DNA from: Gemmatimonadales bacterium
GTDB taxonomy: Bacteria; Gemmatimonadota; Gemmatimonadetes; Gemmatimonadales; GWC2-71-9
Direction of reading: 5' to 3'
DNA: 64,000 bases
Assembly (NCBI GenBank): GCA_041615815.1
Contig: JBFJCP010000003.1
Span: 32,001 to 96,000, forward strand
Part shown: piece by piece, positions 3,312-62,515 of the stretch
Numbering within the stretch: position 1 is the first letter of the stretch
Layout of the letters: each line of letters opens with the position of its first letter
Notes under the pieces: model-generated
What the model was told of the DNA's origin: nothing
What the model saw: the letters and a program-made list of their open reading frames with translations, nothing else
The model's database searches: none
Made by a program: the position numbers and the translations under genes

Positions 3312-3340
3312 TTGACACGATCCCCGCCGGACACTAAGCT
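3312..3340 (+). promoter_or_regulatory. sigma70 promoter of the crp-MBL-csgG-mlaEFD-HD-GYP run
   Basis: TTGACA (3312-3317), 17 nt spacer, TAAGCT (3335-3340); 37 nt upstream of ATG 3378. Confidence 0.7.
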
Positions 3341-3377
3341 AGGCGCATCCAACGCGCTGGAGCACCGAGAGAGCCGC

Positions 3378-4049
3378 ATGGCCGTCGCCGAGACCCTGAA
3401 GCGGATTCCCCTCTTTTCGCACCTGGGTGATGACGAGATCAGCCGGGTCGGCCACGCCGTGCGGGAAAAGAGCTATCCCAAAAACAGCGTCATTCTGTTC
3501 GAAGACGACCCCGGGGACGCCTTGTACGTCGTGGTCACCGGCGAGGTCAAGGTGGTGCGAATCGGGGAAGACGGACGGGAAGTGATCCTTTCGATTCTCC
3601 GTTCGGGCGATTTCTTCGGAGAGATGTCGCTCATCGACGATCAACCGCGATCGGCCCACGTCATCGCGATGCAGGATGCCAACCTCCTGGTGCTGCGCCG
3701 GGAGGACTTTCAGCAGTGCCTCGCCGAGCTGCCGAGCATTGCCCTGGGCCTGCTCAAGGCACTGTCTCGCCGACTCCGCCGGGCCGATGACAAGATCGGT
3801 GAGCTGGTGCTGCTCGACGTCAACGGCAGAGTCTCCCGGGTCCTACTCGAGCTGGCCGACGAAAACGACGGCACGATCATTTCTCGAACGGTCACGCACC
3901 ACACGATCGCCCAGATGATCGGCTCCAGCCGCGAGACCGTCTCCCGCACGATTCGCGAGCTGGCAGACCGAGGACTGATCGAGGTCTCCCGCAAGACCAT
4001 CGCTATCCGAGACCGAGCAGCGTTGGAGGCGGTGGCTGGGCTCCAGTGA
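3378..4049 (+). CDS. Crp/Fnr-family cNMP-binding transcriptional regulator
   Basis: Phosphate-binding cassette FGEMSLIDDQPRSA, C-helix SRRLRRADDKIGELVLLDV, HTH IAQMIGSSRETVSR (CRP-like RETV.R). Start set at ATG 3378, downstream of the promoter. Confidence 0.93.
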   Translation: MAVAETLKRIPLFSHLGDDEISRVGHAVREKSYPKNSVILFEDDPGDALYVVVTGEVKVVRIGEDGREVILSILRSGDFFGEMSLIDDQPRSAHVIAMQDANLLVLRREDFQQCLAELPSIALGLLKALSRRLRRADDKIGELVLLDVNGRVSRVLLELADENDGTIISRTVTHHTIAQMIGSSRETVSRTIRELADRGLIEVSRKTIAIRDRAALEAVAGLQ

Positions 4050-4138
4050 GAGGGGGCACCGATGGGACGTGAGCGTGGTCCTATCCCCTGGTGGAGCCGG
4101 CCATCTACGTTCGGACGGCACGTGGCGAGTCACCGTCG

Positions 4139-5014
4139 ATGACCTGCAAGATCACCTTTTGGGGCACGCGGGGATCCATCCCCACTCCCGGGGCGCCCAC
4201 CGCCCGGTACGGCGGCAATACGCCCTGCGTCTCCGTCGAGCGCACCGACCTCGACAGCACCCGGTTGGTGATTCTCGATGGCGGCACGGGGATTCGTCCG
4301 CTCGGTCGCCGACTCATCGAACAGCCGGAGCGGGACGTCGCCGTCGATCTGCTATTGAGTCATACCCACTGGGACCACATCCAGGGTCTCCCCTTCTTCG
4401 CGCCGTTCTTTCAGGAGGGAAACACGGTCCACATCTGGGGAGCCAAACAGGGCGAGGTGGAGTTGGCGGCGATCCTCCGCCGCCAGATGGATCCGGTCGT
4501 GTTCCCAGTTCCCATCGAGGAAGTAGCGGCCACGCTCGAAGTGCAGCACGTGGGCGAAGGCGAGTTCGAGATCGACGGCTTCGCGGTGGAGGCGGCGCGG
4601 CTCCGGCATCCCGGCACCACCCTGGGCTATCGCCTGACCCCAAAGGGGGGCGACGCCAGTGTGGCGTACGTCACCGATAACGAGCTCGGATTTGGTGGCG
4701 ATTATGACGTGGGACCCGACTGGCATCGCGAGTTTCTCCGCTTCCTGAACGGCGTCACGGTGCTGATCCACGATGCCATGTTCACCCCCTCGGAGCTTGA
4801 GCACCATCGCGGGTGGGGACACAGCTCGTATGGCGAGGCCGTGAAACTCGCGGCCGAAGCCGGGGTAGGGCGTCTGGTGCTGTTCCATCACCTCCCGGAG
4901 CACGACGACGCGGCGATGGATTTACTGGTCGGAAAGGCCCAGGAGGTGGCCGCGGGAACCGATTTTGCGGTAGAGGTGCTGGCGGCAACTGAGGGTATGG
5001 AACTCTGGCTCTGA
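4139..5014 (+). CDS. MBL-fold metallo-hydrolase, putative cyclic-nucleotide phosphodiesterase
   Basis: FWGTRGSIPTPG..YGGNTPC, LDGGTG, SHTHWDHIQG (HxHxDH), YVTDNE, HDA, GWGHSS, LFHH. The fold is secure; the substrate is inferred. Confidence 0.8.
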   Translation: MTCKITFWGTRGSIPTPGAPTARYGGNTPCVSVERTDLDSTRLVILDGGTGIRPLGRRLIEQPERDVAVDLLLSHTHWDHIQGLPFFAPFFQEGNTVHIWGAKQGEVELAAILRRQMDPVVFPVPIEEVAATLEVQHVGEGEFEIDGFAVEAARLRHPGTTLGYRLTPKGGDASVAYVTDNELGFGGDYDVGPDWHREFLRFLNGVTVLIHDAMFTPSELEHHRGWGHSSYGEAVKLAAEAGVGRLVLFHHLPEHDDAAMDLLVGKAQEVAAGTDFAVEVLAATEGMELWL

Positions 5015-5024
5015 GATTGGAGAG

Positions 5025-5720
5025 ATGGTTATGCAGTGGCGCTCATTGATTGGAGTAGTGCTCCTGGTCGGGCTCGCGGCCCCAGCGGCGGCTCAGGACT
5101 CGCGCCCGGGAGTGGCCGTACTCCCCTTCGAGAACGGCGGGTCCTATGGTCAGGACAAAGAGGACTTCGACGCGCTCGAGGTCGGCATTCAGCAGATGCT
5201 ACTCACCGAATTCGCGGTGAACTCAGCGCTCCGCGTTGTGGAGCGGAGCCGTCTACGGGCCCTTATGGACGAACAGGACCTCGGATCCTCCGGCCGGGTG
5301 GACCAGGGAACTGCCGCGCGCCTCGGTCGCTTGGTCGGCGCCCGGTACATGGTGCTGGGCGGCTTCGTGGACTTCTACGGCGATCTCCGCATCGACGCGC
5401 GCGTGGTGAACGTGGAAACGGGCGAGATCGTCAAGAGCGAGCGGGTGCGCGACAAACGGGAGAATCTCTACGACAACATCGTCGATCTGGCACAGAAGGT
5501 CAGCCAGGGCCTGGATCTCCCACCCCTGTCGCGTCAGGCCATGGAGGAACGCAAGAAGCGAGAGGTCCCAGCCGAGGCGGTCCGGCTCTACGTGAAGGGA
5601 TTGCTCTATCAGGACCGGGGAGATAATGAGCGGGCAGCCGAGCTCTTCCAGCAGGCCGTGGCGGAGTACCCGTCCTACACTGAGGCCGAGGTGGCTCTCC
5701 GTCAGATTGGGAGCTCCTAG
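5025..5720 (+). CDS. Secreted CsgG/HfaB/TolB-N-like domain protein with a C-terminal TPR
   Basis: Signal peptide (..AAPAAA-QD), VAVLPFEN, VVERSRL...EQDL...AARLGRLVGARYMVLG, DARVVNVETGEI; TPR-like tail YVKGL...AAELFQQAVAEYPSYTEA. Confidence 0.75.
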   Translation: MVMQWRSLIGVVLLVGLAAPAAAQDSRPGVAVLPFENGGSYGQDKEDFDALEVGIQQMLLTEFAVNSALRVVERSRLRALMDEQDLGSSGRVDQGTAARLGRLVGARYMVLGGFVDFYGDLRIDARVVNVETGEIVKSERVRDKRENLYDNIVDLAQKVSQGLDLPPLSRQAMEERKKREVPAEAVRLYVKGLLYQDRGDNERAAELFQQAVAEYPSYTEAEVALRQIGSS

Positions 5721-5729
5721 GCGGTAGCG

Positions 5730-6512
5730 GTGGCCGCGTCGATCGCGGCCCTTGGCCGGCGAGCGACCGACGCCGTCGCCTGGGTGGGCGCCCTCGCCCG
5801 ATTTTGCGTGCGCACGCTGGCCGCCGCGCGCGCGCTCCCCAGGGCCGGGCGCCGTGTCACCACACGCATCCTTCTGGATCAGGTGCGGTTCACGGCGCTC
5901 CAGGCCGTCCCGCTGATCATCCTCTTGTCCGGCATCCTCAGCTTTCTCCTCATCTCACAGGCGGTACGCGAGCTCGGGCGGTTGGGCGCGACCGAGCTCA
6001 TCGGCCGTCTCATGGTGATCGCGATCGTCCGTGAGTTGGGTCCCCTCCTGACCGCACTGGCCGTGGCCGGCCGCTCGGGCACGGCCATCGCTGCGGAGCT
6101 CGCCACCAATAAAGCGCTCGGTGAGGTCCATGCCCTCGAGGGCATGGGCATAGACCCGGTGCAATACCTCGTCCTCCCTCGGCTCGGCGGGGCCATCGTC
6201 TCCGTGCTCGGGCTGGTGGTGCTGTTCGATCTCGTCGCCATCGGCGCCGGGTTCTTAGCGGCCCTTGCCAACGGCATGAGTGGCGCCCGGTACGCCGAGA
6301 TTGTGACGGACAGCCTGAGCTTCCGCGACGTCTGGCTCACCCCGGCCAAGGGGCTGGCCTTCGGCATGATCATCGGGCTGGTTCCGAGCTTCCACGGACT
6401 CACCGTCGGCGGTCGGCCCACAACGGTACCGATTGCATCGAGCCAAGCCGTGGTCGCGAGCATCGTGGCCATCTTCCTCTGCGCCGGCCTTTTCGTCCTC
6501 GTGCTCTTGTGA
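5730..6512 (+). CDS. MlaE/YrbE-family ABC permease
   Basis: VRELGPLLTALAVAGRSGTAIAAEL...EVHALEGMGIDPVQYLVLPR, the signature of the MlaE family. Confidence 0.9.
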   Translation: MAASIAALGRRATDAVAWVGALARFCVRTLAAARALPRAGRRVTTRILLDQVRFTALQAVPLIILLSGILSFLLISQAVRELGRLGATELIGRLMVIAIVRELGPLLTALAVAGRSGTAIAAELATNKALGEVHALEGMGIDPVQYLVLPRLGGAIVSVLGLVVLFDLVAIGAGFLAALANGMSGARYAEIVTDSLSFRDVWLTPAKGLAFGMIIGLVPSFHGLTVGGRPTTVPIASSQAVVASIVAIFLCAGLFVLVLL

Positions 6513-7186
6513 ACGAGCATCCTCTCCGCTTCGAAGACATCGTGCTCCCCGGCTGGCCGGACGCACCGATGGCGCTCGATGTCACGGCGCACCAGGCCGT
6601 CGCCGTCCTGGGATCCGACGCCTCCGGAGTGGATCAGCTCGCCGCCTACGCCCTGGCCTTGCAGGCTCCACCGGCCGGCCGGGTGCTGGTGCACGGACGG
6701 GATCTCGCCACCCTGCCCTACCGGGAGGCGCTCGCGGCACGCCGCGCCGTGGGATATCTCCCGGCTGACGACGGCCTTCTGCATAACCTCACGCTCTCGG
6801 AGAACGTCGCCCTCCCTCTCAGGTTCGGCAGCCGGCTCACCGAGACCCAGATCCGCAGCCGTGTTGGCGTGATCCTCGCACAGCTCCGGTTGGCGGACGT
6901 GGGGGTGCGGCGGCCTGCGGACGCCACGGGCGAGCAGCGCCGCCGGGCCGCACTGGCGCGGGCCCTCGCCTTCGACCCCGATCTGGTGCTGCTCGAACAC
7001 CCCTTCGACGGTCTCACGGACCGAGATGCCGCTGAGCTTCTGGAACTTGCGCGGGGTGGCGAATCGGCCGCAGGTTCGAGGCGCACCGTGTTCATCATCG
7101 GGCCGTACCTTCCGCCGTCGCTCCGGGCTCGCGTGGAATCGCGCTTCCGGCTGCATCGAGGCCGGCTCGAGTCCGAGGAGGGATAG
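6509..7186 (+). CDS. MlaF-like ABC ATPase-fold protein with degenerate catalytic motifs
   Basis: ABC scaffold recognisable (P.AGRVLVHG.DL, NLTLSENVALPL, RAALARALAFDPDLVLL), but Walker A is GSDASGVD, signature is ATGEQ, Walker B is LLEHP, and there is no switch His. Confidence 0.8.
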   Translation: MNEHPLRFEDIVLPGWPDAPMALDVTAHQAVAVLGSDASGVDQLAAYALALQAPPAGRVLVHGRDLATLPYREALAARRAVGYLPADDGLLHNLTLSENVALPLRFGSRLTETQIRSRVGVILAQLRLADVGVRRPADATGEQRRRAALARALAFDPDLVLLEHPFDGLTDRDAAELLELARGGESAAGSRRTVFIIGPYLPPSLRARVESRFRLHRGRLESEEG

Positions 7187-7195
7187 CGTCAGCTC

Positions 7196-8092
7196 GTGGA
7201 CCTTCGTGGCTCGGATTTCCTGGTAGGATTGTTCGTGCTGGCCACGATCGGCGTCATTGTGGGCGCCATCATCGTGACCAGTGGCTTGGGCGTTCCCCGT
7301 TACGACCTCTATATGCGCGCCGCATCGGCGAACGATCTCACGCAGGATACGCGGGTCCTCCTCCAGGGGTTGCCGGTGGGACGCGTGCGGGCGATCTACC
7401 CCGCGGTGGATACGTTGAGCGGGCAAATGGCGGTGCTGGCAAAGCTCTCCATCGAGCGCCGATTCCGCGATGGCACGGAGCTCAGCCTGCCGTCCGGCAC
7501 CCGGGCCGTCATCGTGCAGCGCAACCCCATTGCCTCACCGGTGGTGGAGTTGGTGTTGCCCAACCGGCCCCCAGGGGCGCTGCTCCAACCCAACGACACG
7601 ATCGACTCCGACCGGCCAGCCAGCGTCATCGATGTCATGAGCGAGATGGCACTCGAGCTGAGAACCGAGCTCACGGCGACGCTCCAGGAGACCCGCACGC
7701 TGCTGACCCGCTCAACCACCGCGGTCGAGCAAACCAACGCAGTGCTCACGAGCGTCGGGCCGCCGCTGCAGGACGCGCTGCAGAATCTCGCGAGTGCGCT
7801 CGACCGCACGGACCAGCTCCTCGCCGACCTCGGGCCGCGAGTAGTCGACTTGAGCGACAGCGTGGCCGTCGCGCTCGCCGATGCGCGGCACATTCTTCAC
7901 ACGCTCGATAGTCTCACGCTCTTGGGACAACAAATGGCCAGCGAGAACCGCGACGCCATTCGAAACCTCGTGGATCACCTCCATCGGTCGGCGGCGGTCT
8001 TGGAGCACTTCACGGACAAGGTGAGCCGCCGCCCGCTGCGTCTGTTTACCGGCGTTACCCCACCACCTGATACAATGGATCTCCATCCGTGA
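7196..8092 (+). CDS. MlaD/MCE-domain protein with a helical C-terminal extension
   Basis: N-terminal TM (FLVGLFVLATIGVIVG), MCE motif L...TRVLLQGLPVGRV, long helical tail ending RRPLRLFTG. Confidence 0.85.
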   Translation: MDLRGSDFLVGLFVLATIGVIVGAIIVTSGLGVPRYDLYMRAASANDLTQDTRVLLQGLPVGRVRAIYPAVDTLSGQMAVLAKLSIERRFRDGTELSLPSGTRAVIVQRNPIASPVVELVLPNRPPGALLQPNDTIDSDRPASVIDVMSEMALELRTELTATLQETRTLLTRSTTAVEQTNAVLTSVGPPLQDALQNLASALDRTDQLLADLGPRVVDLSDSVAVALADARHILHTLDSLTLLGQQMASENRDAIRNLVDHLHRSAAVLEHFTDKVSRRPLRLFTGVTPPPDTMDLHP

Positions 8093-10044
8093 GGTATCTC
8101 CTTTTGCACACCAACGCCGTCGACCTCGGCCCTATCGCGGCCGCGCTGGCAGCGGAAGAGATCGAAACCTGCCTAGTGCATCCGAGCGAGGCCCTCCGGA
8201 TCGGAGAACGACCCACCGTCCTGGTTCTGGACGTGGCGGAATGGACCTCCTTCCATGCGGAGGATCTGCGCCGCTTCGTGGCGGCCGGAGGCTCGGTGCT
8301 GGCGATCGGCGCGCAACATAGCGACGACGTCCCGCCGGCGATCCCCGAAGACCTTCTGGCCGCGTTCGTCTCTCGACCGTACGGCCGCCGCCAGCTCCTG
8401 GTGGCCCTGCGGTCCGCCTACCGTGAAGCAGCAGCTCGACGGGACAGCCTGCGATCCCGCGAGGAAGCCGTGACCCGCACTCGAGAGCTCGGTGAGCTCA
8501 CCCGTATCGGTATGGCCCTGGCCACCGAGCGAGACTACAACACGCTGCTCGATCTCATTCTCTCCCAAGCGCTGGAGATCACGGGATCCGACGCCGGGAG
8601 CTTGTATCTGGTGGAGGGCGGCGAGGCGGACGATGAGGGTACCGAGACCGAGCGTACGCTCCACTTCAAGCTCGCCCAGAACCACTCGCGGCCGGAAATC
8701 CCGTTTATCACGCACACCATTGCCCTGGACCGTGCGAGCATCGCCGGGTACGTCGCGACCACCGGCGAACCGCTGGTGCTGGATGACGCCTATGTGCTGC
8801 CCGAGGGAGTCGAGTATTCCATCAACCGGTCCTTCGACGAGACCTACGGGTACCGGACGCGATCGATGCTGACGATTCCCATGAAGGACCACAAGGATGA
8901 GGTGATCGGCGTGCTTCAGCTCATCAACCGCAAGCGTCATCCCGACGCGAAGCTCCGATCACCCGAGGACTTCGATGCCGAGGTCATTCCGTACTCGGGC
9001 CGCCTGGTGGAGCTGGTGTCAGCGCTCGCCGGCCAGGCGGCAGTCTCCATCGAGAACAGCCAATTGTACGAGGACATCGAGCGCCTGTTCGAAGGATTCG
9101 TGCGGGCGGCCGTCACCGCCATCGAGCAACGGGACCCCACCACCTATGGCCATTCGGGGCGGGTGGCCTCCATGACGGTGGGGCTGGCCGAGGCTGTGGA
9201 TCGTGCTCCGGTTGGAACGTACCGCGATGTCGGTTTCACTCGGGAGGAGATCCGGGAAATCCGCTACGCAGGCCTGCTGCACGACTTCGGGAAGGTGGGC
9301 GTGCGGGAGCAGGTGCTGGTCAAGGCGAAGAAGCTCTACCCTCGCGAGCTCGCGCTGATCAAGCAGCGTCACGCCTTCATCCGGCGCACGGCCGAGCGGG
9401 AGTTCTACCGGCAGCGAACGGAGTACTTGGAACGGCACGGTCGGCAACAATACGATGAGTTCCGAGCCCAACTCGAGGACGAGCATCGGAAGCAGCTCGC
9501 CGAGCTGGACCACTTCATGCAAGTGGTGGCCGATGCCAATGAGCCGTCCCTCCTTCCGGCCGGCACCTTCGAGGAGCTAATCCAACTGGCCGAGCGCCAC
9601 TACGAGGACCTCGACGGACAAGAGCGCCCCTACCTCACCGACGACGAGATTCGGTTCCTGACGATTCGCAAGGGCAGCCTGGATGACGCTGAGCGCCTCG
9701 AGATCGAGAGTCACGTCACCCACACGTATCGTTTTCTCCGACAGATCCCGTGGACCAAGGAGCTCCGGGAGATCCCACGCATCGCCTACGGACACCACGA
9801 GAAGCTCGATGGGAGTGGGTATCCGCGTCGCGTGACGGGCACCCAGATTCCCATTCAGACGCGCATGATGACCGTTGCCGATATCTACGACGCCCTCACC
9901 GCATCGGACCGGCCGTACAAGCGCGCGGTACCGAGCGATCGCGCGCTGGCAATTATCGCGAGCGAGGTGGAAGGTGGGATGCTGGACGCGGACCTGGTGA
10001 AGCTCTTTATCGACGCAAAGGTGTTTCAGCGGACCGACGCGTAG
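8089..10044 (+). CDS. GAF + HD-GYP phosphodiesterase with a degenerate receiver-like N-terminus
   Basis: GAF domain (SIAGYVATTGEPL..DDAY, FDETYGYRTRSMLTIPM..VIGVLQLIN); HD-GYP motifs RDPTTYGHSGRV, LLHDFGKVG, HHEKLDGSGYP, ADIYDALTASDRPYK. Confidence 0.9.
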   Translation: MRYLLLHTNAVDLGPIAAALAAEEIETCLVHPSEALRIGERPTVLVLDVAEWTSFHAEDLRRFVAAGGSVLAIGAQHSDDVPPAIPEDLLAAFVSRPYGRRQLLVALRSAYREAAARRDSLRSREEAVTRTRELGELTRIGMALATERDYNTLLDLILSQALEITGSDAGSLYLVEGGEADDEGTETERTLHFKLAQNHSRPEIPFITHTIALDRASIAGYVATTGEPLVLDDAYVLPEGVEYSINRSFDETYGYRTRSMLTIPMKDHKDEVIGVLQLINRKRHPDAKLRSPEDFDAEVIPYSGRLVELVSALAGQAAVSIENSQLYEDIERLFEGFVRAAVTAIEQRDPTTYGHSGRVASMTVGLAEAVDRAPVGTYRDVGFTREEIREIRYAGLLHDFGKVGVREQVLVKAKKLYPRELALIKQRHAFIRRTAEREFYRQRTEYLERHGRQQYDEFRAQLEDEHRKQLAELDHFMQVVADANEPSLLPAGTFEELIQLAERHYEDLDGQERPYLTDDEIRFLTIRKGSLDDAERLEIESHVTHTYRFLRQIPWTKELREIPRIAYGHHEKLDGSGYPRRVTGTQIPIQTRMMTVADIYDALTASDRPYKRAVPSDRALAIIASEVEGGMLDADLVKLFIDAKVFQRTDA

Positions 10045-36479: not shown

Positions 36480-37298
36480 CTAGCCCCGCCCCGCTTCCCG
36501 CTCCATCAGCGTCGTCCACGATTCTCGTACTAGCCCTGCGTCGCGACTCACGACCGGTTTCAAGTCGACGTCGCCGTCCACGATCTCCACGTAGTGCGGT
36601 CGGAACATCCAGCTCCCCGTGTTCAGGTACATCGCAGCCTTTCCGATCCGCGCCGACCCGATCTTGTGGGTATGTCCGAAGATGACATAATCGAACCCCC
36701 GCCGGGACACTCGCTCCGCCGCATCACGAAACGCCGGAGCTTCCCCAGGAATGAAATCCGCTTCGTTCCCCTCGACGGTAGCCTTGGCGCTGCGTCTGAG
36801 ACTCAGCAGGAACTCCTTCGAGCGGTCCAACGCATGATAGACCCGGGGGTGGATCCGAAGTGCCAACCCACCCAGCAACGTGAGGGCCTCGTAGATCCGC
36901 GGGAATCGCACAAACATGTCGTCGTACAGGTGCCCATGCTCGATCCGAATCCGGGAATCACCAGAGACGACGTTGAGAAACGGCACCACGCGAATGATCT
37001 CCCAATCGTCCAGAAAGTGCTCCAGCACGATATCGTGGTTGCCCACGACGTAGTACACTTTGAGACCCTGACGTACGAACTTCTGCAGGAGAATGGTGCT
37101 CGCGGCGAGATCGCGGGAGATTTGCATGATCGACGTCTGCATGATGTCCACGCCGTCGCCGTTGATACAGAGGCTGAAACGGTGCTCCAGCGCGTATTTG
37201 AGAAACTCGATGAACGGTTGGCGCGCCCGAAACAGGCGATTCCCCAGGTGCACGTCCGAGACGACCAGGAGGCGGGATTCCGAGATGGTTGTCTTCAT
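36480..37298 (-). CDS. Calcineurin-like metallophosphoesterase (LpxH-like scaffold, GNHD variant)
   Basis: SDVHLG, NGDGVD, VGNHD, EHGH, FGHTH, YLNTGSW. Confidence 0.85.
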   Translation of the reverse strand: MKTTISESRLLVVSDVHLGNRLFRARQPFIEFLKYALEHRFSLCINGDGVDIMQTSIMQISRDLAASTILLQKFVRQGLKVYYVVGNHDIVLEHFLDDWEIIRVVPFLNVVSGDSRIRIEHGHLYDDMFVRFPRIYEALTLLGGLALRIHPRVYHALDRSKEFLLSLRRSAKATVEGNEADFIPGEAPAFRDAAERVSRRGFDYVIFGHTHKIGSARIGKAAMYLNTGSWMFRPHYVEIVDGDVDLKPVVSRDAGLVRESWTTLMEREAGRG

Positions 37299-37750
37299 TC
37301 ATCGACACCGTCGAGTGTCCGGTACTCGGAGGTAGCGCGGAGTCGCTCGATCCGATCGGACATCTCCTTGGGCATCTTCCCGCTCGTCATCAGCTCGACC
37401 AACCGCTCGTCGATGTCCCGGATGCGCCGGCTCATGTGCTGGAGCATTTCGAAGGCGAACGTGGGGTCGCGGCGAATGGTCAGGAGGAGCGACCCCGGCT
37501 TGATCACCAGGAGCTTGGTCTTGATCGCTGCCCGGACCGTCGCGTTCCTCGGCATCGACTCCAGCAACGACATCTCGCCGAAAAAACTGCCTCTTCCCAA
37601 TCGAGCGAACTCGATGTCCTCACCCCCGACCTCCTTCGTCACCACGACTTCGCCTTCTTGGATGACGAACATCTCCCGGCTTTCGTCACCCTCACGAACG
37701 ATGATATCTCCGGGATCGTATGTCTCTTCGTAGTCGGTCGGGCTCCGCAT
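37295..37750 (-). CDS. Stand-alone cyclic nucleotide-binding domain protein (no HTH)
   Basis: YDPGDIIVREGD, FFGEMSLLESMPRNATVRA, C-helix MSRRIRDIDERL. Confidence 0.88.
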   Translation of the reverse strand: MRSPTDYEETYDPGDIIVREGDESREMFVIQEGEVVVTKEVGGEDIEFARLGRGSFFGEMSLLESMPRNATVRAAIKTKLLVIKPGSLLLTIRRDPTFAFEMLQHMSRRIRDIDERLVELMTSGKMPKEMSDRIERLRATSEYRTLDGVDE

Positions 37751-53573: not shown

Positions 53574-53827
53574 CGAAACCCACGCGGTCACTGATTGCGA
53601 GGCGCCCTCCGGCGGCCCGTCGTCCCAGTTGGGACGAAGACGGGTGGTGAGAACACGCGCGGAGGGTCTCAAAAACGGCGCCGCCCATTCCGGCCCCGTC
53701 ACCGTCAACGCCCCCCTACACCCGAGGATGCCCGTCCACAGCGCCGGTTTCCCCGTTCGCCCGGCTCCGTCTTCATAGACCGCGCTCGCGCCCATAGCTT
53801 TCATCCGGCCGCCTGTCTCTCTCGCCG

Positions 53828-53854
53828 TGAAACCGGCTCCATGGAGGATCCGTA
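53828..53854 (+). promoter_or_regulatory. Putative ECF-sigma promoter of the TolC-exporter operon
   Basis: TGAAAC (53828-53833), 17 nt spacer, CGTA (53851-53854); 43 nt before ATG 53898. Confidence 0.5.
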
Positions 53855-53897
53855 CGGCTATGCGGCTCACTCACCAAGTAAAGGCAAGGCAACGATC

Positions 53898-55415
53898 ATG
53901 AACGGCTATCGCATCTCGCTGGTCCTGATGGCGCTGGCCGCCGTGCCGGGGTGCGCGTTCGCGCAGCGTCCGGTCGTACCAACGATTCCCACTTCCCTTT
54001 CGCTGCGCGAGGCCGTGGACTTCGCGCTCCGATACAACCCCACCTATCGCCAGGCCGCCAACGATCGTTCGCCGGCGGCTTGGGGGGTGCGAAACGCCTA
54101 TGCGTCGTTTCTGCCCAACTTGACGGCCGGCTACGGCGTCAACTATACCGGATCCGGGACGCAGACGTTTCTCACTGACGAGTTCGTGCAACCCTCAGCC
54201 ACCATCGGTTCCGACTATTCGCTGAGTTTGTCCATGAGCTTCTCGGGTCGCACCTTGATGCAACCCGGACTGGCCAAGGCCCAGTTGCGAGCAGCGGACG
54301 CGGGCGTGGTGGGCGCGGAGGTCGCCATCGAGACGGCGGTGCGGCGCCAGTACCTCGGGGTCCTCCGCGCCGAGGCGCAGGTGGGCCTGGCCGAGTTGCA
54401 GCTAGAGCGCAACGAGGAATTCCTGCGACTCGCCAACGCGCGCTTCCAGGTGGGACAGAACACGATGCTCGACGTTCGCCAGGCTCAGGTCGCCCGCGGA
54501 CAATCCGAGGTCGCGTTACTACAAGCCCGTCAGCTCGTCACCGTGGAGAAGCTCCGGTTGTTCGAGCAGATGGGGGTCTTGGCGCCTGAGGATCCAGCGC
54601 TCGTGGCACTGTCCGACTCGTTCCCCATCGTGGAGCCCACCTGGCAGCTCGGGTCACTCCTCGGCGAAGCCGAGCAACGGAATCCGGACCTTTTGGCGTT
54701 GCGAGCCCGCGAGCACGCGGCTCACGCGGGCGAGCGGGCCGCAAAGTCATCGTGGCTCCCGACCCTCTCGTTGTCAGCCGGCTGGTCGGGCTTTACGCAG
54801 CAGTTCACCAACGACGCGTTTCTGGTCCAGCAAGCCCAGACCGGAGCCGGGCTGCAATTCCAGTCGTGTCAGCAGCAAAATCTGATCGTGGGCGATGTGA
54901 ATACCCGCTTGGCGGCGAACGAGCAGATCCCGCTGAGCGATTGTAGTCTCTTCATGTTCACTGATGCGGATGCAGCGGCGCTTCGCGCGGACAACGATGT
55001 CTTTCCGTTCAGCTTTCAGACTCAGCCGTTTCAGGCCCGCGTGTCCGTCTCGCTTCCGATTTTCAATCAGTTCAGTCGATCCTTGGAGATCGCGCAGGCG
55101 TCCGCCCAGACGGACGATGCCCAGGAAGCCGTGCGCCAGCGCGAGCTACAAGTTCGCACGGCCGTGAGCGAAGCCTATTACGGGCTCCTCACGGCGTACC
55201 AAACGATCGCGATCCAAGAGGACAATCGGGTGGCCGCGCAGGAACAGCTGCGGTTGGCCACCGAACGGTACCGCGTTGGATCGGGAACGTTTTTCGAGCT
55301 GCTCGATGCCCAAGTGGCCGCGCAGCAAGCCGAGGCGGACTACATTAATGCGATCTATAGCTACCATCAGGCGATCGCCATCTTGGAGTCCGCCGTTGGT
55401 CGTTCCCTTCGCTAG
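53898..55415 (+). CDS. TolC-family outer membrane efflux protein
   Basis: Signal peptide, LSLREAV..AL..NP, two OEP repeats (FLPNL, WLPTL, SLPIF, ERYRVGSGT..ELLDAQ). Confidence 0.92.
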   Translation: MNGYRISLVLMALAAVPGCAFAQRPVVPTIPTSLSLREAVDFALRYNPTYRQAANDRSPAAWGVRNAYASFLPNLTAGYGVNYTGSGTQTFLTDEFVQPSATIGSDYSLSLSMSFSGRTLMQPGLAKAQLRAADAGVVGAEVAIETAVRRQYLGVLRAEAQVGLAELQLERNEEFLRLANARFQVGQNTMLDVRQAQVARGQSEVALLQARQLVTVEKLRLFEQMGVLAPEDPALVALSDSFPIVEPTWQLGSLLGEAEQRNPDLLALRAREHAAHAGERAAKSSWLPTLSLSAGWSGFTQQFTNDAFLVQQAQTGAGLQFQSCQQQNLIVGDVNTRLAANEQIPLSDCSLFMFTDADAAALRADNDVFPFSFQTQPFQARVSVSLPIFNQFSRSLEIAQASAQTDDAQEAVRQRELQVRTAVSEAYYGLLTAYQTIAIQEDNRVAAQEQLRLATERYRVGSGTFFELLDAQVAAQQAEADYINAIYSYHQAIAILESAVGRSLR

Positions 55416-55427
55416 CACGGATGCGAT

Positions 55428-56699
55428 ATGGCACGTCGTAATAAGATCCTCATCTTCGTTGGCCTGATCGTCCTTATCGGAGGATTCATCACCGTCAATG
55501 CGGTCGCCCGCGGTGACCGTGGTGTCGAGGTACGGCTCGAGACCGTAGGTCGGCGCGACCTCGTGGCCACCGTGACCGCCAGCGGACAGATCGCTCCCAA
55601 ACGCTCCGTGGACGTGAGCGCCGACATCACAGGGCGGATCATCGAGATTCCGTTTGCCGAAGGCGACACGGTCAGCCAAGGTGATCTGTTGATCCGAATC
55701 GACCCGTCGCAGTACAATGCGGCCGTCGCCCGGGCACAGGCCACACTCTCGTCCTCTCAGGCGTCCGCCCTCCAGACGCAGGCCAATCGCGACCAAGCCA
55801 AGCGGGCGCTGGATCGCACCATCGAGCTCTGGCGCACGGATAGCACCCTCGTATCCGAGGAACAACTGGATCAGGCGGAGACGTCATTCCAGGTCGCGAA
55901 CGCGCTCGCCAACTCCGCCGAACACCAGGTGGATCAGGCGCGCGCGGCGCTCCAGGAAGCTCGCGAGCAGCTCGCCAAGACGGTGCTCCGCTCCCCGATG
56001 AGTGGACAGGTCACCCGGATGGCGGTGGAAGTGGGCGAGGTCGCGGTACCCGGGACGTTCTCTCGCGAAACCGGTCTCTTGCTCACGGTGAGCGACCTGT
56101 CGGTGATCCAAGTCAACGTGAAGGTCGACGAGACAGATGTGGTGCGACTCCATCACGGAGACTCTGCGGAGATCACCATCGACGCGTTTCCAGACACGAC
56201 GTTCACGGGCCGGGTGACCAAGATCTCCCAGAGCGCGATCCGGCTCGGGGCGGGCGCCACGAGTGCCGGTAGCGACCAGGCGGTGGATTACGATGTGGAG
56301 ATCACGCTGGACGATCCCCCCGTGGAGATCCGCCCGGATCTCTCCGCCACCGCCAAGGTGATCACGGCCATGCGCGACAGCGTGTTGAGCATTCCCATCA
56401 TCGCGCTCACCGTGCGTGAACATACGCCGATACAAATGGAAACGGCCGGAACCGCGCGCAGAGACACCAGTGGCGCCAAGCGCGATACGGAGGGCGTGTT
56501 CGTGGTGGCCGAAGGTCTGGCCCAGTTCCGCCCCGTCAAGGTGGGCATTGCCGGAGAAGAGTACTTCGAGGTCGTGGACGGGCTGACGGAAGGTGACAGT
56601 ATCGTCGCGGGGCCGTATCAGACCATCCGCGATCTTCGCGATGGCGCCAAAGTGCGGGCGGCCGAGGAGCGTGACGATCAGTCCGGAGCGGCCCGATGA
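55428..56699 (+). CDS. MacA-like periplasmic adaptor subunit
   Basis: TM anchor, VTASG.I.P...VDVSA.I.GRI, coiled-coil hairpin, SPMSG.V, VDETDV, GLTEGD.IV.G. Confidence 0.93.
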
Positions 56700-57397
56700 T
56701 GGGGAACGGCGCACTCATACGGGTTCGTGCGCTCACCCGCGAGTATCACATGGACGCGGAGACGGTCCGAGCTCTGCGAGGCGTCGACCTGGACATCCCG
56801 CGCAACGAGTATGTGGCCATCATGGGTCCCTCGGGGTCGGGGAAATCCACCCTCATGAATCTCATCGGATGCCTCGACACGCCCACGTCCGGCGAGTATT
56901 GGCTGAACGGGGTCGAAGTGTCACGCATGGAGGACGATGAGCTCGCTCGGGTTCGGAACCGCGAAATCGGGTTCGTCTTTCAGACCTTCAACCTGCTCCC
57001 TCGAGCGACGGCGCTCCACAACGTGGAACTGCCCCTGATCTATGCCGGAGTACGCGCGGCGGATCGTCGCGCCCGGGCCGCAAGAGCGCTCGAGCGCGTG
57101 GGTCTGGCGGATCGGATGGAGCACAAGCCCAACGAGCTCTCCGGCGGGCAGCGCCAGCGCGTGGCCATTGCTCGCGCCCTCGTCAACGACCCGAGCATTC
57201 TCCTCGCCGACGAGCCCACCGGTAACCTAGACTCCGTCACCAGTAACGAGATTCTCGCCGTCTTCGACGAACTACACCGCGAGGGACAGACCGTCGTCAT
57301 GGTGACTCACGAGGAGGGCGTCGCCGCGCAGGCACGGCGGACCGTGACCCTGCGAGACGGCATGGTGCACAGCGACCGACTGCGCGAAGCGGCCTGA
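56696..57397 (+). CDS. ABC transporter ATP-binding protein (MacB/LolD type)
   Basis: Intact [35 protein letters not shown]. Confidence 0.96.
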
Positions 57398-57403
57398 GGC
57401 ACC

Positions 57404-58648
57404 GTGCCCTTCCGCGAGGCGATTCGCCTGGCTCTCCAGACCCTCTGGGCGAACAAGATGAAGAGCGTCTTCTCGCTCATCGGCGTCTTCATCGGCGTCA
57501 CGTTCCTGATCGCCGTGATCTCCGTCATCGAGGGCATGAACGAATACATGACGGAGCGGTTTGCCGGCACCATCCTCGGTGTGAACACGTTCTCCCTGCG
57601 GCGCTATCCCAACGTCCAATTGGGGAACGTGTCGGCAGAGACCTGGCGAAAGTGGGTCCGGCGTCCCCGCATCGACTACGAGGATGCGCGGGCCGTGGAA
57701 GCCGCCATTTCCGTTCCGGTCATCACGGCTTGGGAATCCGAGGCCGACATCGACGTGGAGTACCGCGGCAAAGTCGCGCGAGAGATCCGGGTCATCGGCG
57801 CCACGGACAGCTACTTCGACATCAAGGGATGGACGATCGAGGAGGGACGGCCCTTCAGCACCCAAGAGGCCCGAGCGGGACGGCCGGTGCTCGTGATCGG
57901 GCACGAAGTGGCAGCGCGTCTCTTCGACAACGTCGATCCCATTGGCCGGGAAGTAAAGATTCGAGACATGCCGTACCGCATCATTGGCATCGTCGAGGCC
58001 CAGGGGAACCTTTTCGGGCTGTCGTTGGACAAGTTCGCCGTGGCCCCCGCGCTCTCCCCGGTCAAGAAGTTCGTGGCACCTCCGGGCCGGATCGATGCCT
58101 TCGTGGTCAAAGCGGCAACGCCTGCCGAGCTGGAGACGGCCATGGCGGAGGCAGAGGCCGCCATGCGGAGCCGTCGCCACTTGAGACCGGGTGAGGAGAA
58201 CACGTTCGTCCTCGAAACGGCGGATGACGTCCTCGACTTTTGGGGGAAGATCAACGCGGTGTTGATCACCGCCCTGCCGCTCCTCGTGGGCATCTCCCTA
58301 CTCGTGGGCGGGATCGTGATCATGAACATCATGCTCATGGCCGTCGCGGAGCGCACCCGAGAAATCGGGATCCGTAAGTCTCTCGGCGCGCGCCGCGGGG
58401 ATATTCTCAAGCAGTTTCTAGTGGAATCTGGCACCCTCGCCACACTGGGAGCCGGACTGGGCATTGTGACCGGGTTCACCCTGGCCGGTGCAGTGGATGC
58501 TGCCACCCCTCTGCCCACGAGCGTGGCCCCGTGGTCCATTCTCCTCGGCGTCCTCCTGGGAGGCGGCGTCGGTATCGCGGCCGGTCTCTACCCGGCCAGC
58601 CGAGCCGCGCGCCTGGATCCCATCACCGCCATCAGGCATGAGACATGA
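57404..58648 (+). CDS. MacB/FtsX-type ABC permease 1
   Basis: 4-TM layout with periplasmic domain; [27 protein letters not shown]-terminus LDPITAIRHE. Confidence 0.93.
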   Translation: MPFREAIRLALQTLWANKMKSVFSLIGVFIGVTFLIAVISVIEGMNEYMTERFAGTILGVNTFSLRRYPNVQLGNVSAETWRKWVRRPRIDYEDARAVEAAISVPVITAWESEADIDVEYRGKVAREIRVIGATDSYFDIKGWTIEEGRPFSTQEARAGRPVLVIGHEVAARLFDNVDPIGREVKIRDMPYRIIGIVEAQGNLFGLSLDKFAVAPALSPVKKFVAPPGRIDAFVVKAATPAELETAMAEAEAAMRSRRHLRPGEENTFVLETADDVLDFWGKINAVLITALPLLVGISLLVGGIVIMNIMLMAVAERTREIGIRKSLGARRGDILKQFLVESGTLATLGAGLGIVTGFTLAGAVDAATPLPTSVAPWSILLGVLLGGGVGIAAGLYPASRAARLDPITAIRHET

Positions 58649-59880
58649 CGCAGCTGTTCGAGGGTGTAGGAATCGCGCTCGATTCGCTGCGTGCCAACAA
58701 GGTGCGAGCGGCCCTGACCATCGTCGGCGTGGCTATCGGCGTCATGGTGGTCATGGTGATTGGGTCGATGATCTCGGGGATCAACCGCGGCGTGGAGGAC
58801 ATCTTCAACCAGCTGGGGCCCCGCACGTTCTTCGTGTTTCGGTTCTTCCAAGGCGGGGTGGTCGTATCCGACGGAACGGACGAGACGAGCCCATGGCGTC
58901 GGAACCCGCCACTCACCATCGATGAGGCCGCACGCCTCGTCGAGCTGTCCAGCATCGCCGCGGTGGTGGTGGACGAGCAGTCCAGCACCGAAGTGCAATT
59001 CGCCAACAACGAGCTCGATAACGTCACGGTCCTCGGGCGCGGACCCCGGTGGCTCGAAGTCTCCGGTGGTGACGTCTTCCCAGGCCGCTCGTTCACCAAT
59101 CTGGAGTTCCAGGCGCGCACTCGGGTCGTCGTGATCAATGACAAGATGGCTGAAGAGCTGTTCGCCTTGCGAGATCCGCTTGGGCAACGGATCACGATTG
59201 CTGGTGTACCGTACGAAGTCATCGGTGTCTACACCCCACCCCCCGACATCTTTGGCTCGGGAAATCGACCCCAAGCCCTCCTGCCCCACAGCACGTTTCA
59301 AAAACACGTGCCCCACTTCCGGGGATGGATGAACTTCCTGGTGCTCCCAGCGGGCGACGTTGCTGTGCAGGACGCCATCGATGATGCCACGGCGGTGCTC
59401 CGGGGGATGCGGGGACTCCGGCCTGCAGAAGAGAACACGTTCTCCATCGTGACGCAGGACAAGCTCCTCGAAAACTGGAACCAAGTCACCGGCATTTTCT
59501 TCTTCGTGATGATCATCCTGTCCAGCGTCGGTCTCATGGTCGGGGGCGTGGGCGTCGTCGCCATCATGATGATCTCGGTGACCGAGCGCACGCGGGAGAT
59601 CGGGATCCGCAAGGCCCTCGGCGCCAAACGGCGCGAGATCCTGTGGCAGTTCCTCGTGGAAGCAGCCACCCTCACAGCCCTCGGTGGCATCATCGGTATG
59701 GCCTTGGGTGGGCTGGCCAGCACGATCGTCAGGGCGGCGACTCCCCTCCCGGCCAATGTCCCCATGGCATCCATCGTGGCCGCACTCGGCGTGTCCGTCC
59801 TCACCGGGGTGGCCTTCGGTCTCTACCCTGCCGCCAAGGCGGCGCGGCTCGATCCGGTAGAGGCGTTGCGATATGAGTAG
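58645..59880 (+). CDS. MacB/FtsX-type ABC permease 2
   Basis: [30 protein letters not shown]-terminus LDPVEALRYE. Confidence 0.93.
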   Translation: MTQLFEGVGIALDSLRANKVRAALTIVGVAIGVMVVMVIGSMISGINRGVEDIFNQLGPRTFFVFRFFQGGVVVSDGTDETSPWRRNPPLTIDEAARLVELSSIAAVVVDEQSSTEVQFANNELDNVTVLGRGPRWLEVSGGDVFPGRSFTNLEFQARTRVVVINDKMAEELFALRDPLGQRITIAGVPYEVIGVYTPPPDIFGSGNRPQALLPHSTFQKHVPHFRGWMNFLVLPAGDVAVQDAIDDATAVLRGMRGLRPAEENTFSIVTQDKLLENWNQVTGIFFFVMIILSSVGLMVGGVGVVAIMMISVTERTREIGIRKALGAKRREILWQFLVEAATLTALGGIIGMALGGLASTIVRAATPLPANVPMASIVAALGVSVLTGVAFGLYPAAKAARLDPVEALRYE

Positions 59881-60032
59881 AGGGGGCCGAAGGGGCAAAG
59901 GGAGCAGAAGCACGGGACGATAGACCAGTCCGCCGCCTCGTCTACCTCTGCTGGCTCCCCTCCACTGACCCCAACCACCCATTCACCGAAGCGGCGCTTT
60001 GGTCTCCCGGTCCGCTGCCGTAACTTTTCCCC

Positions 60033-61277
60033 ATGCCAGTCCGCGAAGGTCTCCGTCTCGCGCTGCAGGCGATCTTCAGCCATCGGCTACGGTCGTCGTT
60101 CACGATCCTTGGCATCCTCGTCTCCGTCGCGTTCCTCGTGACGGTCGTCGCGGTGATCCAGGGGATGAACGCTTACGTCCAGGAACGGCTGGCCGGCGCC
60201 ATCGTTGGCACTAACGCTTTTCAGGTCCGTCGCACGCCGATCGCCGTGGGGCAGATCGACGACGAGGAATGGCGACAGATTCAACAGCGGCCCCGCATCA
60301 ACCAGCGCGACTACGAGTTTGTGCAGCGGGCACTCCAGGACGCCAGAGCGGTCGCCCTCCAGTCGGGGTGGCCCACCCCGCAAACCGACGTGCACTGGCG
60401 CAATCGAACGGTGGGCGACGTCCTCGCGTTCGGCATTACGGCACCGTATCAAGTCGTGCAGGATTACGCCTTTGCTGCGGGGGAGCCGCTCACCGACATC
60501 GACATTCGGGAGCGCCGGTATCTCGTGGTGCTGGGATGGGACGTCGCCGATAAGCTGTTTGGCGAGCCTGCCATGGCCATCGACCAGCGCATCCGCCTGG
60601 GGCGGATGCCACTGACGGTCAAAGGCGTGACCGCCAAGAAAGGCACGATCCTGGGGCAGTCGTGGGATGGCTTCGTCATGCTGCCCCTCACGACCTTCGA
60701 GAGCATCTACGGGAGGCGCCAGACTCTCACCATCTCCGTGAAGATGCCCACACCGCAGGCATTGCCAGACGCGATGTCGCGCGCCGAAGAAGCGATGCGC
60801 GTGGCGAGGCGCCTCCGGCCCTCGGATCCCAACGACTTCGTGGTGGACAAAGCGGATGCCCTCGTCACGTTTTGGGCCAATCTCACTGGCGTGCTCTTCG
60901 CCATCATCCCCGCGGTCGTGGGCATCGGGCTCATCGTCGGCGGCATCGTGATCATGAACATCATGCTCATGTCCGTTCGTGAACGAACCCGAGAAATCGG
61001 AATCCGAAAGTCCCTCGGTGCCCGGCGCATCGACATCCGCCGCCAGTTCCTGGCTGAAGCGGTCACCCTCGCCAGCCTCGGTGGACTCATCGGCATCCTC
61101 GCGGGCTGGGGGCTGGCGCTCCTCGTGGCGACCGCCACACCGCTTCCCGCCCGGGTCACACTCTGGTCGGTCGCGATCGCCCTGGCGCTCGGCGCGACCA
61201 TCGGCGTCATCTTTGGCGTCTATCCCGCGCACCGGGCCGCCAAACTCGACCCAATCGTCGCCCTGCGCTACGAATGA
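60033..61277 (+). CDS. MacB/FtsX-type ABC permease 3
   Basis: [30 protein letters not shown]-terminus [10 protein letters not shown]. Confidence 0.93.
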
Positions 61278-62515
61278 AGCTGCATACGGTTTCCGAGGGA
61301 GCAGGCATCGCCTTGGGTGCCATCCGCGACAATAAGCTGCGGTCGGCCCTGACGATCCTGGGCGTGGTCATTGGCGTATCGACCGTGATGGCCATGGCCT
61401 CCATCGTGAGCGGGCTTCGCCATCAGATCATCAATACCCTCGAAGTCGCCGGCCCGACCACGTTCTACGTGGTGCGGTTCTTCTCACAAACCCCACTCAA
61501 CCCGGACGCGTTGCCGCGAGAAGTCCGCATCCGGCCTGTCCTGAAACGCGAAGAGGCTGACGTCATTGGACGCCTGCCGGAGGTTTCGTACAGCGGGATC
61601 TGGATTCAGATGCTCCAGAAACTGGAGTACGGTGGTGTGAGTACGCAGCTGGCCACCATTTACGCCGCGGATGATCGCTACATGGAGATCGGCGGCGGCA
61701 CGCTTCCGCGTGGACGCTTCTTTAGTGTGAGCGAGGTGCGCGGCGGTGACCCGGTGGTGGTGCTCGAAGAAAACTTTGCGCAGCGGTTGTTTGGGCGCGC
61801 CGATCCCCTGGGACGGGACGTCCGCATCGGCGGTCGGCCGCTCCGGGTCATCGGAATCTACCGTACGCCCGAGAACATCTTTCAACCGCCAAGTCAGGAG
61901 ATCGCCGCCATCATACCCTTTGAGACTGGTGACAAATACTTTCGGTACGACGAAACCAACGCACTGTGGATCGCCGTCAAGCCTCACGCCGGCGTGACGG
62001 TGAATGCCGCACAAGATGCCGTGACCATCGCCCTCCGCCGTGCCCGGGGGCTCCGACCCGGCGATCCGAACACGTTCGACATGATCACCCAGGATCAGAT
62101 CCTCGACATCTTCAACCAGCTCACCTCGGTGTTCTTCTTGGTCATGATCGCCCTGTCGAGCGTGGCGCTCATGGTGGGCGGCATCGGGGTGATGGGCATC
62201 ATGATGGTCTCGGTCACCGACCGCACACGAGAGATCGGCGTGCGCAAGGCCCTGGGAGCCACTCGCAAAGAGATTCTGTGGCAGTTCCTGGTGGAAGCCG
62301 CAACGCTGACATTGGTGGGCGGCGGGATCGGAGTCCTCCTGGGTCTCACCGCCGGCGAGGGGCTCAAGAGCGCCCTCGGCTTCGAGAGCGGCGTGCCCAT
62401 GTGGAGCGCGGCCATCGCCGTGGCGGTCTCGATCATCATCGGACTCGTCTTTGGGCTCCTCCCCGCGAGCCGCGCCGCTCGGCTGGACCCGATCGCGGCC
62501 TTGCGGTACGAGTGA
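61274..62515 (+). CDS. MacB/FtsX-type ABC permease 4
   Basis: [30 protein letters not shown]-terminus [10 protein letters not shown]. Confidence 0.93.

Follow-up and report, generated by a model that had tools for sequence, protein, structure and literature searches.

A likely Crp-controlled signalling operon with an optional, ATPase-dead MlaE/F/D cassette in a Gemmatimonadales genome

A window of 64,000 nt from a Gemmatimonadales bacterium was analysed for a seven-gene locus at positions 3312..10044 of its plus strand (Table 1), in which genes for a Crp-family regulator, a metallo-beta-lactamase (MBL)-fold protein, a secreted CsgG/TolB-N-like protein and a GAF-HD-GYP protein surround an MlaE/F/D triad of the MCE type. 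The interpretation that we favour, with moderate confidence, is that the locus is a feedback and output operon of cyclic AMP (cAMP) and Crp, which provides cross-talk from cAMP to cyclic di-GMP (c-di-GMP) and carries the triad as an optional, non-energised MCE accessory under the same control. Crp would be made from its own promoter and would bind cAMP from an unlinked cyclase; cAMP-Crp would then switch on an internal promoter for the MBL protein, the secreted TolB-N/TPR protein, the GAF-HD-GYP protein and, where present, the triad. The MBL enzyme would lower cAMP, giving negative feedback, and the GAF-HD-GYP protein, perhaps activated by cAMP through its GAF domain, would lower c-di-GMP. The triad would be co-regulated with these enzymes and not required by them. 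As its ATPase subunit lacks every catalytic motif, it should be unable to pump on its own and for that reason is most likely an envelope accessory, induced by cAMP and acting either as a passive lipid conduit or as a modulator of two ordinary MlaEFD complexes. For the MCE complex, the sequence evidence favours a role as an optional output of cAMP signalling over one as a signal input. A sequence-only reading of the same DNA had proposed one seven-part trans-envelope module that couples the MCE apparatus to second-messenger turnover and Crp output and might relay an envelope or lipid cue. The composition is indeed conserved, but its obligatory unity is weakened by the many relatives in which the triad is missing or decayed, and the evidence on control points from Crp to the operon instead, in the form of conserved CRP boxes. 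Overlooked at that stage were both the loss of catalytic motifs from MlaF and the CRP-box promoter between crp and the MBL gene.

Promoter elements were counted in 41 loci, the window and 40 orthologous loci. An exact GTGA-N6-TCAC is present at the 3′ end of crp in 35/41 loci (shuffle mean 0.05) and in 0/41 in a control region 5′ of crp. Among the 35 exact loci, five have a box whose TGA is not the crp stop codon. A tandem GTGA pattern was found in 36/41 loci, and in each of these 36 the second GTGA is offset from the first by exactly 23 nt. The pattern is followed by a TTG/TAG-like -35 at +13 and by TAnnnT at about +37, a -10-like element in which A at +38 and T at +42 are each found in 30/36 loci. 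By CRP promoter geometry the second half-site sits at the class II position, and activation by Crp is therefore likely. Because the tandem box and the -10 at fixed distance are conserved, the genes from MBL to HD-GYP likely form a Crp-controlled operon read from this predicted internal promoter. The box is missing from three loci (L101, L104, L105), those keeping only crp and the MBL gene. Upstream of crp, TTGAC[AT]-N16-18-TAnnnT occurs in 39/41 loci (shuffle mean 0.06), so the crp promoter is not a chance match; a consensus scanner did not call it, its -10 fitting the consensus at only 3/6 positions.

In the regulator itself, the phosphate-binding cassette (G81 E82 R91 S92) and the recognition helix (R185 E186 T187 V188 S189 R190, RETVSR) are invariant in 21/21 aligned sequences, and the closest full-length PDB relatives are 4EV0 and 3D0S. 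It scores 131 against the NCBIfam CRP equivalog, under the cut-off of 266; its binding of cAMP is a prediction. The window's genome (G000) contains 21 copies of TGTGA-N6-TCACA (for example C11:23765, C42:24163, C18:32883 and C7:107000), as against 0-3 for spacers of 3-5 and 7-10. Some of these sites lie 5′ of atpA or of genes that, judged by eye from the encoded N-termini, are pilin-like, PilM-like and PilB/GspE-like, and those near pilus-like genes suggest a Vfr-like pilus regulon. A linked class III cyclase had been put forward for searching; the genome's sole match is a soluble FHA-GAF-cyclase on another contig than the locus (G000:C19:58408-58929; L045:9382-11346, minus strand). Its specificity positions, Lys and Thr, read as those of an adenylate-type enzyme. 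GGDEF matches in the genome number 14.

In the MlaF-derived protein of the window (pseudo-MlaF), the Walker A lysine is replaced by V41 and the Q-loop glutamine by P85, LSGGM reads ATGEQ, the Walker B pair DE reads EH and there is no H-switch. Across 46 orthologues the Walker A lysine is kept in none, V, I or L standing there instead; the Q-loop residue is Pro and the second signature Gly is Glu in 46/46, and Walker B D-E is replaced by E-Q or E-H. The protein ends at about 225 aa, before the C-terminal handshake extension of canonical sequences. Its profile finds 7D06 and 6Z5U as best PDB matches, presumably Acinetobacter MlaF. Pseudo-MlaF is under purifying selection (ratio of non-synonymous to synonymous substitution, dN/dS, of 0.10-0.25 in 5/5 pairs), and a conserved ARGGExxxGxRR segment was seen in the operon-linked group only. 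E. coli MlaF is inactivated by K47A, by E170Q and also when the extension is missing (PMC7367683).

The permease partner has the conserved MlaE columns (ELGP, GRxG and the coupling helix) and falls in a subfamily forming a separate clade (SH-aLRT 100, 24/34 rows), which is also found in Latescibacterota-like, Acidobacteriota, Fibrobacterota and deltaproteobacterial records. Outside the Gemmatimonadota family, the triad of this subfamily is mostly stand-alone with an already degenerate ATPase. MlaD consists of an N-terminal membrane anchor (one hydrophobic segment by hydropathy), an MCE domain and a C-terminal extension; it scores 33 bits against PF02470 (cut-off 25) and lies under the cut-off of TIGR00996. 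Two further MlaE loci in the genome are ordinary MlaEFD sets with intact ATPases. No match to MlaA was found anywhere in the genome, which is 95.7% complete, and the genome search returned a single weak MlaC-like match, outside the locus. As MlaEFD without MlaABC and with a long MlaD is the common state in bacteria (PMC10665443), this lack of MlaA/B/C is ordinary outside Proteobacteria. Stand-alone triads were observed in several phyla (L044, L065, L067, L079, L108-L112, L159, L171, L175, L177, L178, L181, L184, L187); of the MlaF rows extracted from them 0/13 have LSGG, and 4/13 also lack the Walker A lysine. Several of the triads are followed by a TPR protein gene. In Fibrimonas-like genomes (L069-L076, L085) a subfamily MlaE without an adjacent MlaF or MlaD match stands beside a gene judged by eye to encode an EngB-like GTPase.

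Conservation of the neighbourhood was first mapped in 48 loci, 27 of which have an MlaE of at least 58% identity; in the remaining 21 the MlaE is more distant and signalling genes are lacking. The seven-gene order is complete in 23/27 close loci, and in the remaining four, cut by contig ends, the visible part is in order, so that there is no exception to it. Gemmatimonadales or Gemmatimonadota metagenome-assembled genomes provide the closest named loci. However, the neighbouring rpmE-prfA-prmC genes are equally syntenic, and gene order alone therefore proves little. Among the best 80 of 504 metagenome loci, by our own classification, 60 were of the operon type, 5 of a deltaproteobacterial type and 15 stand-alone.

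After a search for the MBL and HD-GYP proteins in 151 genomes of the class, 20 loci without an MlaE orthologue were fetched. Eleven of these read Crp-MBL-CsgG-HD-GYP with nothing between; in two, from distant genomes (G041, G089), the space between MBL and HD-GYP is taken up by genes for a caspase-like protein, a CHASE2 adenylate cyclase and a secreted protein; two have MBL beside HD-GYP and five are further reduced. From these gene contents, Crp-MBL-(CsgG-like)-HD-GYP is the core, to which the MlaE/F/D triad is an optional addition. In a sample of 121 genomes of the window's family, HD-GYP was found in 84 and pseudo-MlaF in 51, all 51 of which have HD-GYP, on the same contig and within about 2 kb in 50; none of the 37 genomes without HD-GYP has pseudo-MlaF. 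Of the 33 genomes that have HD-GYP but no MlaF match, 19 were followed up, with 20 loci in all. No triad gene is present in 16 of these loci, and one proved to be a false negative, its triad being intact except for a frameshift in MlaF. The other three were a decayed remnant, an MlaD fragment and an unlinked second HD-GYP. The remnant lies at L188:7190-7823 in a genome of the window's own genus (G220) and the MlaD-only fragment at L189:6874-7533 (G196); both may be losses in progress, or possibly assembly errors.

On a FastTree tree of Crp, MBL, CsgG-like protein and HD-GYP (49 rows, 25 with the triad), the state of the triad changes at least 11 times, a count that is blind to gain versus loss. 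Given a triad-less outgroup and the visible remnants, we infer one gain followed by about ten losses. The triad was present in 0/10 sampled genomes of the sister family, and within the window's family no genome was found to carry it at another place. Among the alignment columns of the four neighbours, 3 are conserved with the triad alone and 5 without it, and so there is no sign of an obligatory interface. The GTGA overlap of mlaD with the HD-GYP start is both the median and the maximum in 33 complete loci.

The MBL protein has an intact HxHxDH binuclear site, and H75 H77 D79 H80, H157, D180, D212, H228 and H251 are invariant in the alignment. Its predicted structure (pLDDT 89.8) has an RNase Z/YhfI/PhnP-like fold. 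In Pfam it matches PF12706 alone and thus no named cyclic nucleoside monophosphate (cNMP) phosphodiesterase family. An orthologue is present in 58/151 genomes of the class, all 58 of which have a class III cyclase, as against 27/93 genomes without the orthologue; within the window's order presence and absence agree in 37/38 genomes, although kin genomes are not independent in these counts. Among the longer homologues listed, 117/120 carry GAF, REC, cNMP-binding or GGDEF domains, 34 of them cNMP-binding. By this co-occurrence and these fusions the protein is likely a cNMP phosphodiesterase, and the tie to cyclic-nucleotide signalling drawn for it earlier is strengthened by genomic context.

The GAF-HD-GYP protein comprises an extra N-terminal domain, a GAF domain and an HD-GYP domain with an insertion of ~100 aa. 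Residues D349, H355, H398 D399, K402, H542, H569 H570, G577 Y578 P579, D598, D601 and R608 are invariant. When mapped on 4MCW, the metal ligands (H, HD, H, HH, D) and the GYP motif are invariant in 28/28 sequences, and in the guanine-specificity motif RxxK, R608 is invariant and K611 is present in 27/28. Residue roles were taken from PMC4159591 and bioRxiv 10.1101/2021.11.05.467447. T351 occupies the position of PmGH E185, the third-metal ligand of the trinuclear subgroup, which places the protein in the binuclear subgroup. Since the PmGH ligands except E185, the D/K pair, GYP and RxxK are kept, the expected reaction is c-di-GMP to pGpG, in keeping with the earlier assignment to cyclic-dinucleotide-type enzymes. 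The GAF domain resembles cNMP-binding GAF domains, with matches to those of PDE5 and cyclases; a cAMP-dependent GAF-HD-GYP protein, Tlr0485, is cited in bioRxiv 10.1101/2021.11.05.467447.

The secreted TPR protein has a signal peptide and a TolB-N/LpoB fold with TPR helices, its closest whole-length fold being the periplasmic domain of CadC (TM 0.50-0.53). It has no lipobox cysteine, and indeed no cysteine at all; in its orthologues the signal peptide terminates at an AQD-type site, and no Cys is conserved there. It is kept in 24/24 triad-less tree rows, which were chosen to have it, and in 11/20 fetched loci without the triad. Because it is kept where the triad is missing, it is assigned to the signalling core and not to the MCE triad.

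At the locus itself, seven co-directional open reading frames at 3378-10044 were confirmed by sequence and Pfam, together with the TTGACA-N17-TAAGCT promoter (TTGACA at 3312-3317, TAAGCT at 3335-3340) described by the sequence-only reading. A gap of 89 nt separates crp from the MBL gene; the gene of the secreted protein then follows after 10 nt and mlaE after 9 nt, mlaF overlaps mlaE by GTGA, mlaD lies 9 nt further on, and the HD-GYP gene overlaps mlaD by GTGA, in agreement with the earlier account of gaps of at most 10 nt or GTGA overlaps. The genes have the look of a co-transcribed unit, and the proposed neighbourhood conservation was recovered as described above. No cyclase, MlaA or MlaC was seen among the scanned proteins of the window, in agreement with the earlier reading, which had recognised none.

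Table 1. Features of the locus and their positions in the window.
Feature	Position	Strand	Evidence
crp promoter, sigma70-type TTGACA-N17-TAAGCT; back to back with the divergent rpmE-prfA-prmC operon	3312..3340	+	sequence, pattern conservation
Crp-family cNMP receptor, 223 aa	3378..4049	+	PF00027, PF13545
CRP box GTGA-N6-[T/G]CAC, overlapping the crp stop codon	4046..4059	+	sequence, conservation
Second GTGA half-site (4069-4072) and -10-like TACGTT (4106-4111); predicted Crp-dependent internal promoter	4069..4111	+	
MBL-fold metallo-phosphodiesterase, RNase Z/YhfI/PhnP-like fold; likely cNMP phosphodiesterase	4139..5014	+	PF12706
Secreted CsgG/TolB-N-like + TPR protein	5025..5720	+	PF03783 over positions 5-101 of 210 only
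MlaE-type permease, distinct subfamily	5730..6512	+	PF02405 (E 7.7e-55, 186 bits)
MlaF-derived ABC-fold pseudo-ATPase	6509..7186	+	PF00005
Long MlaD, 298 aa	7196..8092	+	PF02470
GAF-HD-GYP phosphodiesterase (predicted)	8089..10044	+	PF01590, PF13487

Elsewhere in the window, a second small cyclic-nucleotide-related pair was seen at 36480-37750 on the minus strand, where a gene for a stand-alone cNMP-binding protein of 151 aa is directly followed by one for a calcineurin-like metallophosphoesterase. An efflux cluster at 53595-62515 on the plus strand encodes an outer-membrane factor, a membrane-fusion protein, one ATP-binding cassette (ABC) ATPase and four tandem MacB/FtsX permeases.

Several observations weigh against the feedback-operon interpretation. 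The window's own CRP box, like those of two other loci, has one mismatch, and its promoter has a poor -35; the genome encodes one or more further proteins that have a cNMP domain and are similar to Crp in size, and so another regulator could read the boxes. The structures nearest to the MBL protein (RNase Z, YhfI and PhnP) share 17-20% identity with it, and it scores 44.7 bits against the cyclic-nucleotide phosphodiesterase model NF041851 (cut-off 400), which leaves room for another substrate. The weakest step is the role given to the dead-ATPase complex. The best evidence on the opposing side comes from an operon read as deltaproteobacterial from cluster names (L148:3340-7268; also L149, L166, L168 and L173), in which the order is MlaE-MBL-MlaF-MlaD. 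Its MBL is of the same family as the window's (34% identity) and its MlaE of the same subfamily; its MlaF has an intact Walker A, the signature LSLGM and no H-switch. These five of the best 80 metagenome loci, where MlaF and MlaD follow if the contig extends, are from one lineage and were noticed after the fact; they are suggestive of an independent MlaE-MBL adjacency, which an optional-output role leaves unexplained. They would form a second instance of the arrangement if the MCE complex had instead turned into an ATP-independent trans-envelope receptor or modulator, in which an envelope or hydrophobic cue enters MlaD, MlaE shifts shape, and the dead MlaF docks and controls the MBL or HD-GYP phosphodiesterase, linking lipid state to cAMP/c-di-GMP turnover. 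We regard such a receptor, with its docking of a phosphodiesterase by MlaF, as unlikely. The constant company of pseudo-MlaF and HD-GYP (51/51, 50 on one contig; 0/37 without HD-GYP) is in its favour, but linkage within one family amounts to a single ancestral event. Likewise, the triad fills the very slot between MBL and HD-GYP that the CHASE2 cyclase module holds in G041 and G089, the GTGA overlap is both the median and the maximum spacing at the HD-GYP start, and selection on pseudo-MlaF is joined by its operon-restricted segment; yet the triad was apparently lost about ten times with the signalling genes kept, and Crp, MBL, CsgG-like protein and HD-GYP have no excess of triad-dependent residues (3 versus 5 control). 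Moreover, equally dead or degenerate triads stand alone in other lineages with no signalling neighbour (L044, L065/L108, L067, L079, L112, L159, L178), which argues that the dead ATPase predates the operon.

Such stand-alone triads of the same subfamily, in G089 and in other phyla, would also suit a passenger, that is, a cassette that moved once into the operon in the family ancestor and keeps an envelope job unrelated to cyclic nucleotides. Its absence from the ten sister-family genomes sampled, its frequent clean loss and decay, and the cheapness of gene-order conservation in a family where rpmE-prfA-prmC is as syntenic all agree with this. However, the CRP-box promoter 5′ of the triad is strongly conserved, translational coupling is tight, and the triad was never found elsewhere in the family; its long retention under Crp control suggests regulation that is at least tolerated and probably useful. 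We consider a passenger origin of this kind doubtful, and it is similarly improbable that the triad is transcribed with the operon by position only. The sequence-only reading had also entertained import or export of a signal; that the triad uses ATP to move a cyclic nucleotide or a lipid signal in or out is very improbable. MlaE and MlaD are intact and adjoin signalling genes, and either of the two other loci could conceivably lend a working MlaF; but in the operon-linked MlaF orthologues examined the Walker A Lys, the Q-loop Gln, LSGG, the Walker B pair DE and the H-switch are all missing, and by the established architecture of ABC proteins, pairing with a normal MlaF would leave both composite sites crippled. 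Furthermore, characterised MCE systems carry lipids or hydrophobic molecules and not nucleotides (PMC10665443). Overall, the cAMP-Crp feedback operon with an optional MCE accessory remains our preferred interpretation.

All parts of the locus belong to known folds or families. As the earlier reading had supposed, the system seems to be undescribed, since neither the Crp-box operon nor the conserved dead-ATPase MCE cassette was found in the open-access literature. The MlaE/F/D subfamily crosses phyla with a progressively degenerate ATPase, which in the window's family is fully dead yet conserved; it makes testable the idea of MCE machines without their own ATPase, as conduits, modulators or receptors. 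The operon also gives the widespread WGxRGS family of MBL proteins a direct test as cAMP phosphodiesterases under Crp feedback, and offers a compact candidate switch from cAMP to c-di-GMP in a phylum that has been little studied. A built-in comparison is provided by nature, since the triad is present in some genomes and absent from others, even inside one genus.

Among known systems, the receptors of the CRP/Vfr/GlxR type (4EV0, 3D0S, 4BYY and E. coli CRP) have the same cNMP cassette and RETVSR helix as the window's Crp, and the same TGTGA-N6-TCACA sites, which are enriched in its genome. Thr127-Ser128 of E. coli CRP is Ala-Asp in the window, as in 4EV0. The difference lies in the position of the box, at the 3′ end of the regulator's own gene, from where it would drive the downstream operon. 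The MBL protein shares the HxHxDH site and fold with RNase Z, YhfI, PhnP, yeast PDE1 (class II) and Apyc1 (TM-score 0.57-0.71). In contrast, it belongs to a separate WGxRGS family, at 14-20% identity to these enzymes, which unlike them is usually fused to GAF, REC, cNMP or GGDEF domains; no characterised member was found in the open-access literature. The GAF and HD-GYP combination is that of the PmGH family (4MCW; PMC4159591) and of Tlr0485. Apart from E185, the metal ligands of PmGH are all kept in the window's protein, as are the catalytic D/K pair, GYP and RxxK, but it has Thr at E185, indicating a two-metal type expected to stop at pGpG, and an insertion of ~100 aa at the usual place of KPG together with the extra N-terminal domain. 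For the secreted TPR protein, comparison with the CsgG secretion pore and the PqiC-like MCE outer-membrane lipoprotein fails on both the lipobox and co-inheritance with MCE.

Also comparable with the operon are the clusters of the related Gemmatimonadota G041 and G089 (L097:269-8253 and L098:5034-14439, with L106 and L107), which read MBL, caspase-like/DUF4384, CHASE2 adenylate cyclase, secreted protein and GAF-HD-GYP, and for which no paper was found in the open-access literature. They have the same MBL first and the same GAF-HD-GYP last, and face a convergent operon that encodes a second caspase-like protein as well as a CsgG-like TPR protein orthologous to the window's (34-35% identity); G089 also has a divergent gene for a cNMP-binding/SpoIIE phosphatase. 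They differ from the window in holding a membrane cyclase, a caspase-like protein and a secreted protein in the slot of the triad, and in having no clear CRP box. The triad itself shares the mlaE-mlaF-mlaD order and overlapping frames with the minimal MlaEFD of Veillonella parvula (PMC10665443) and E. coli MlaFEDB (PMC7367683), and like the former it has a long MlaD in an operon without MlaA/B/C. It departs from both in an MlaF without catalytic motifs or handshake extension, in its place inside a CRP-box operon between second-messenger genes, and in its coexistence with two ordinary MlaEFD sets.

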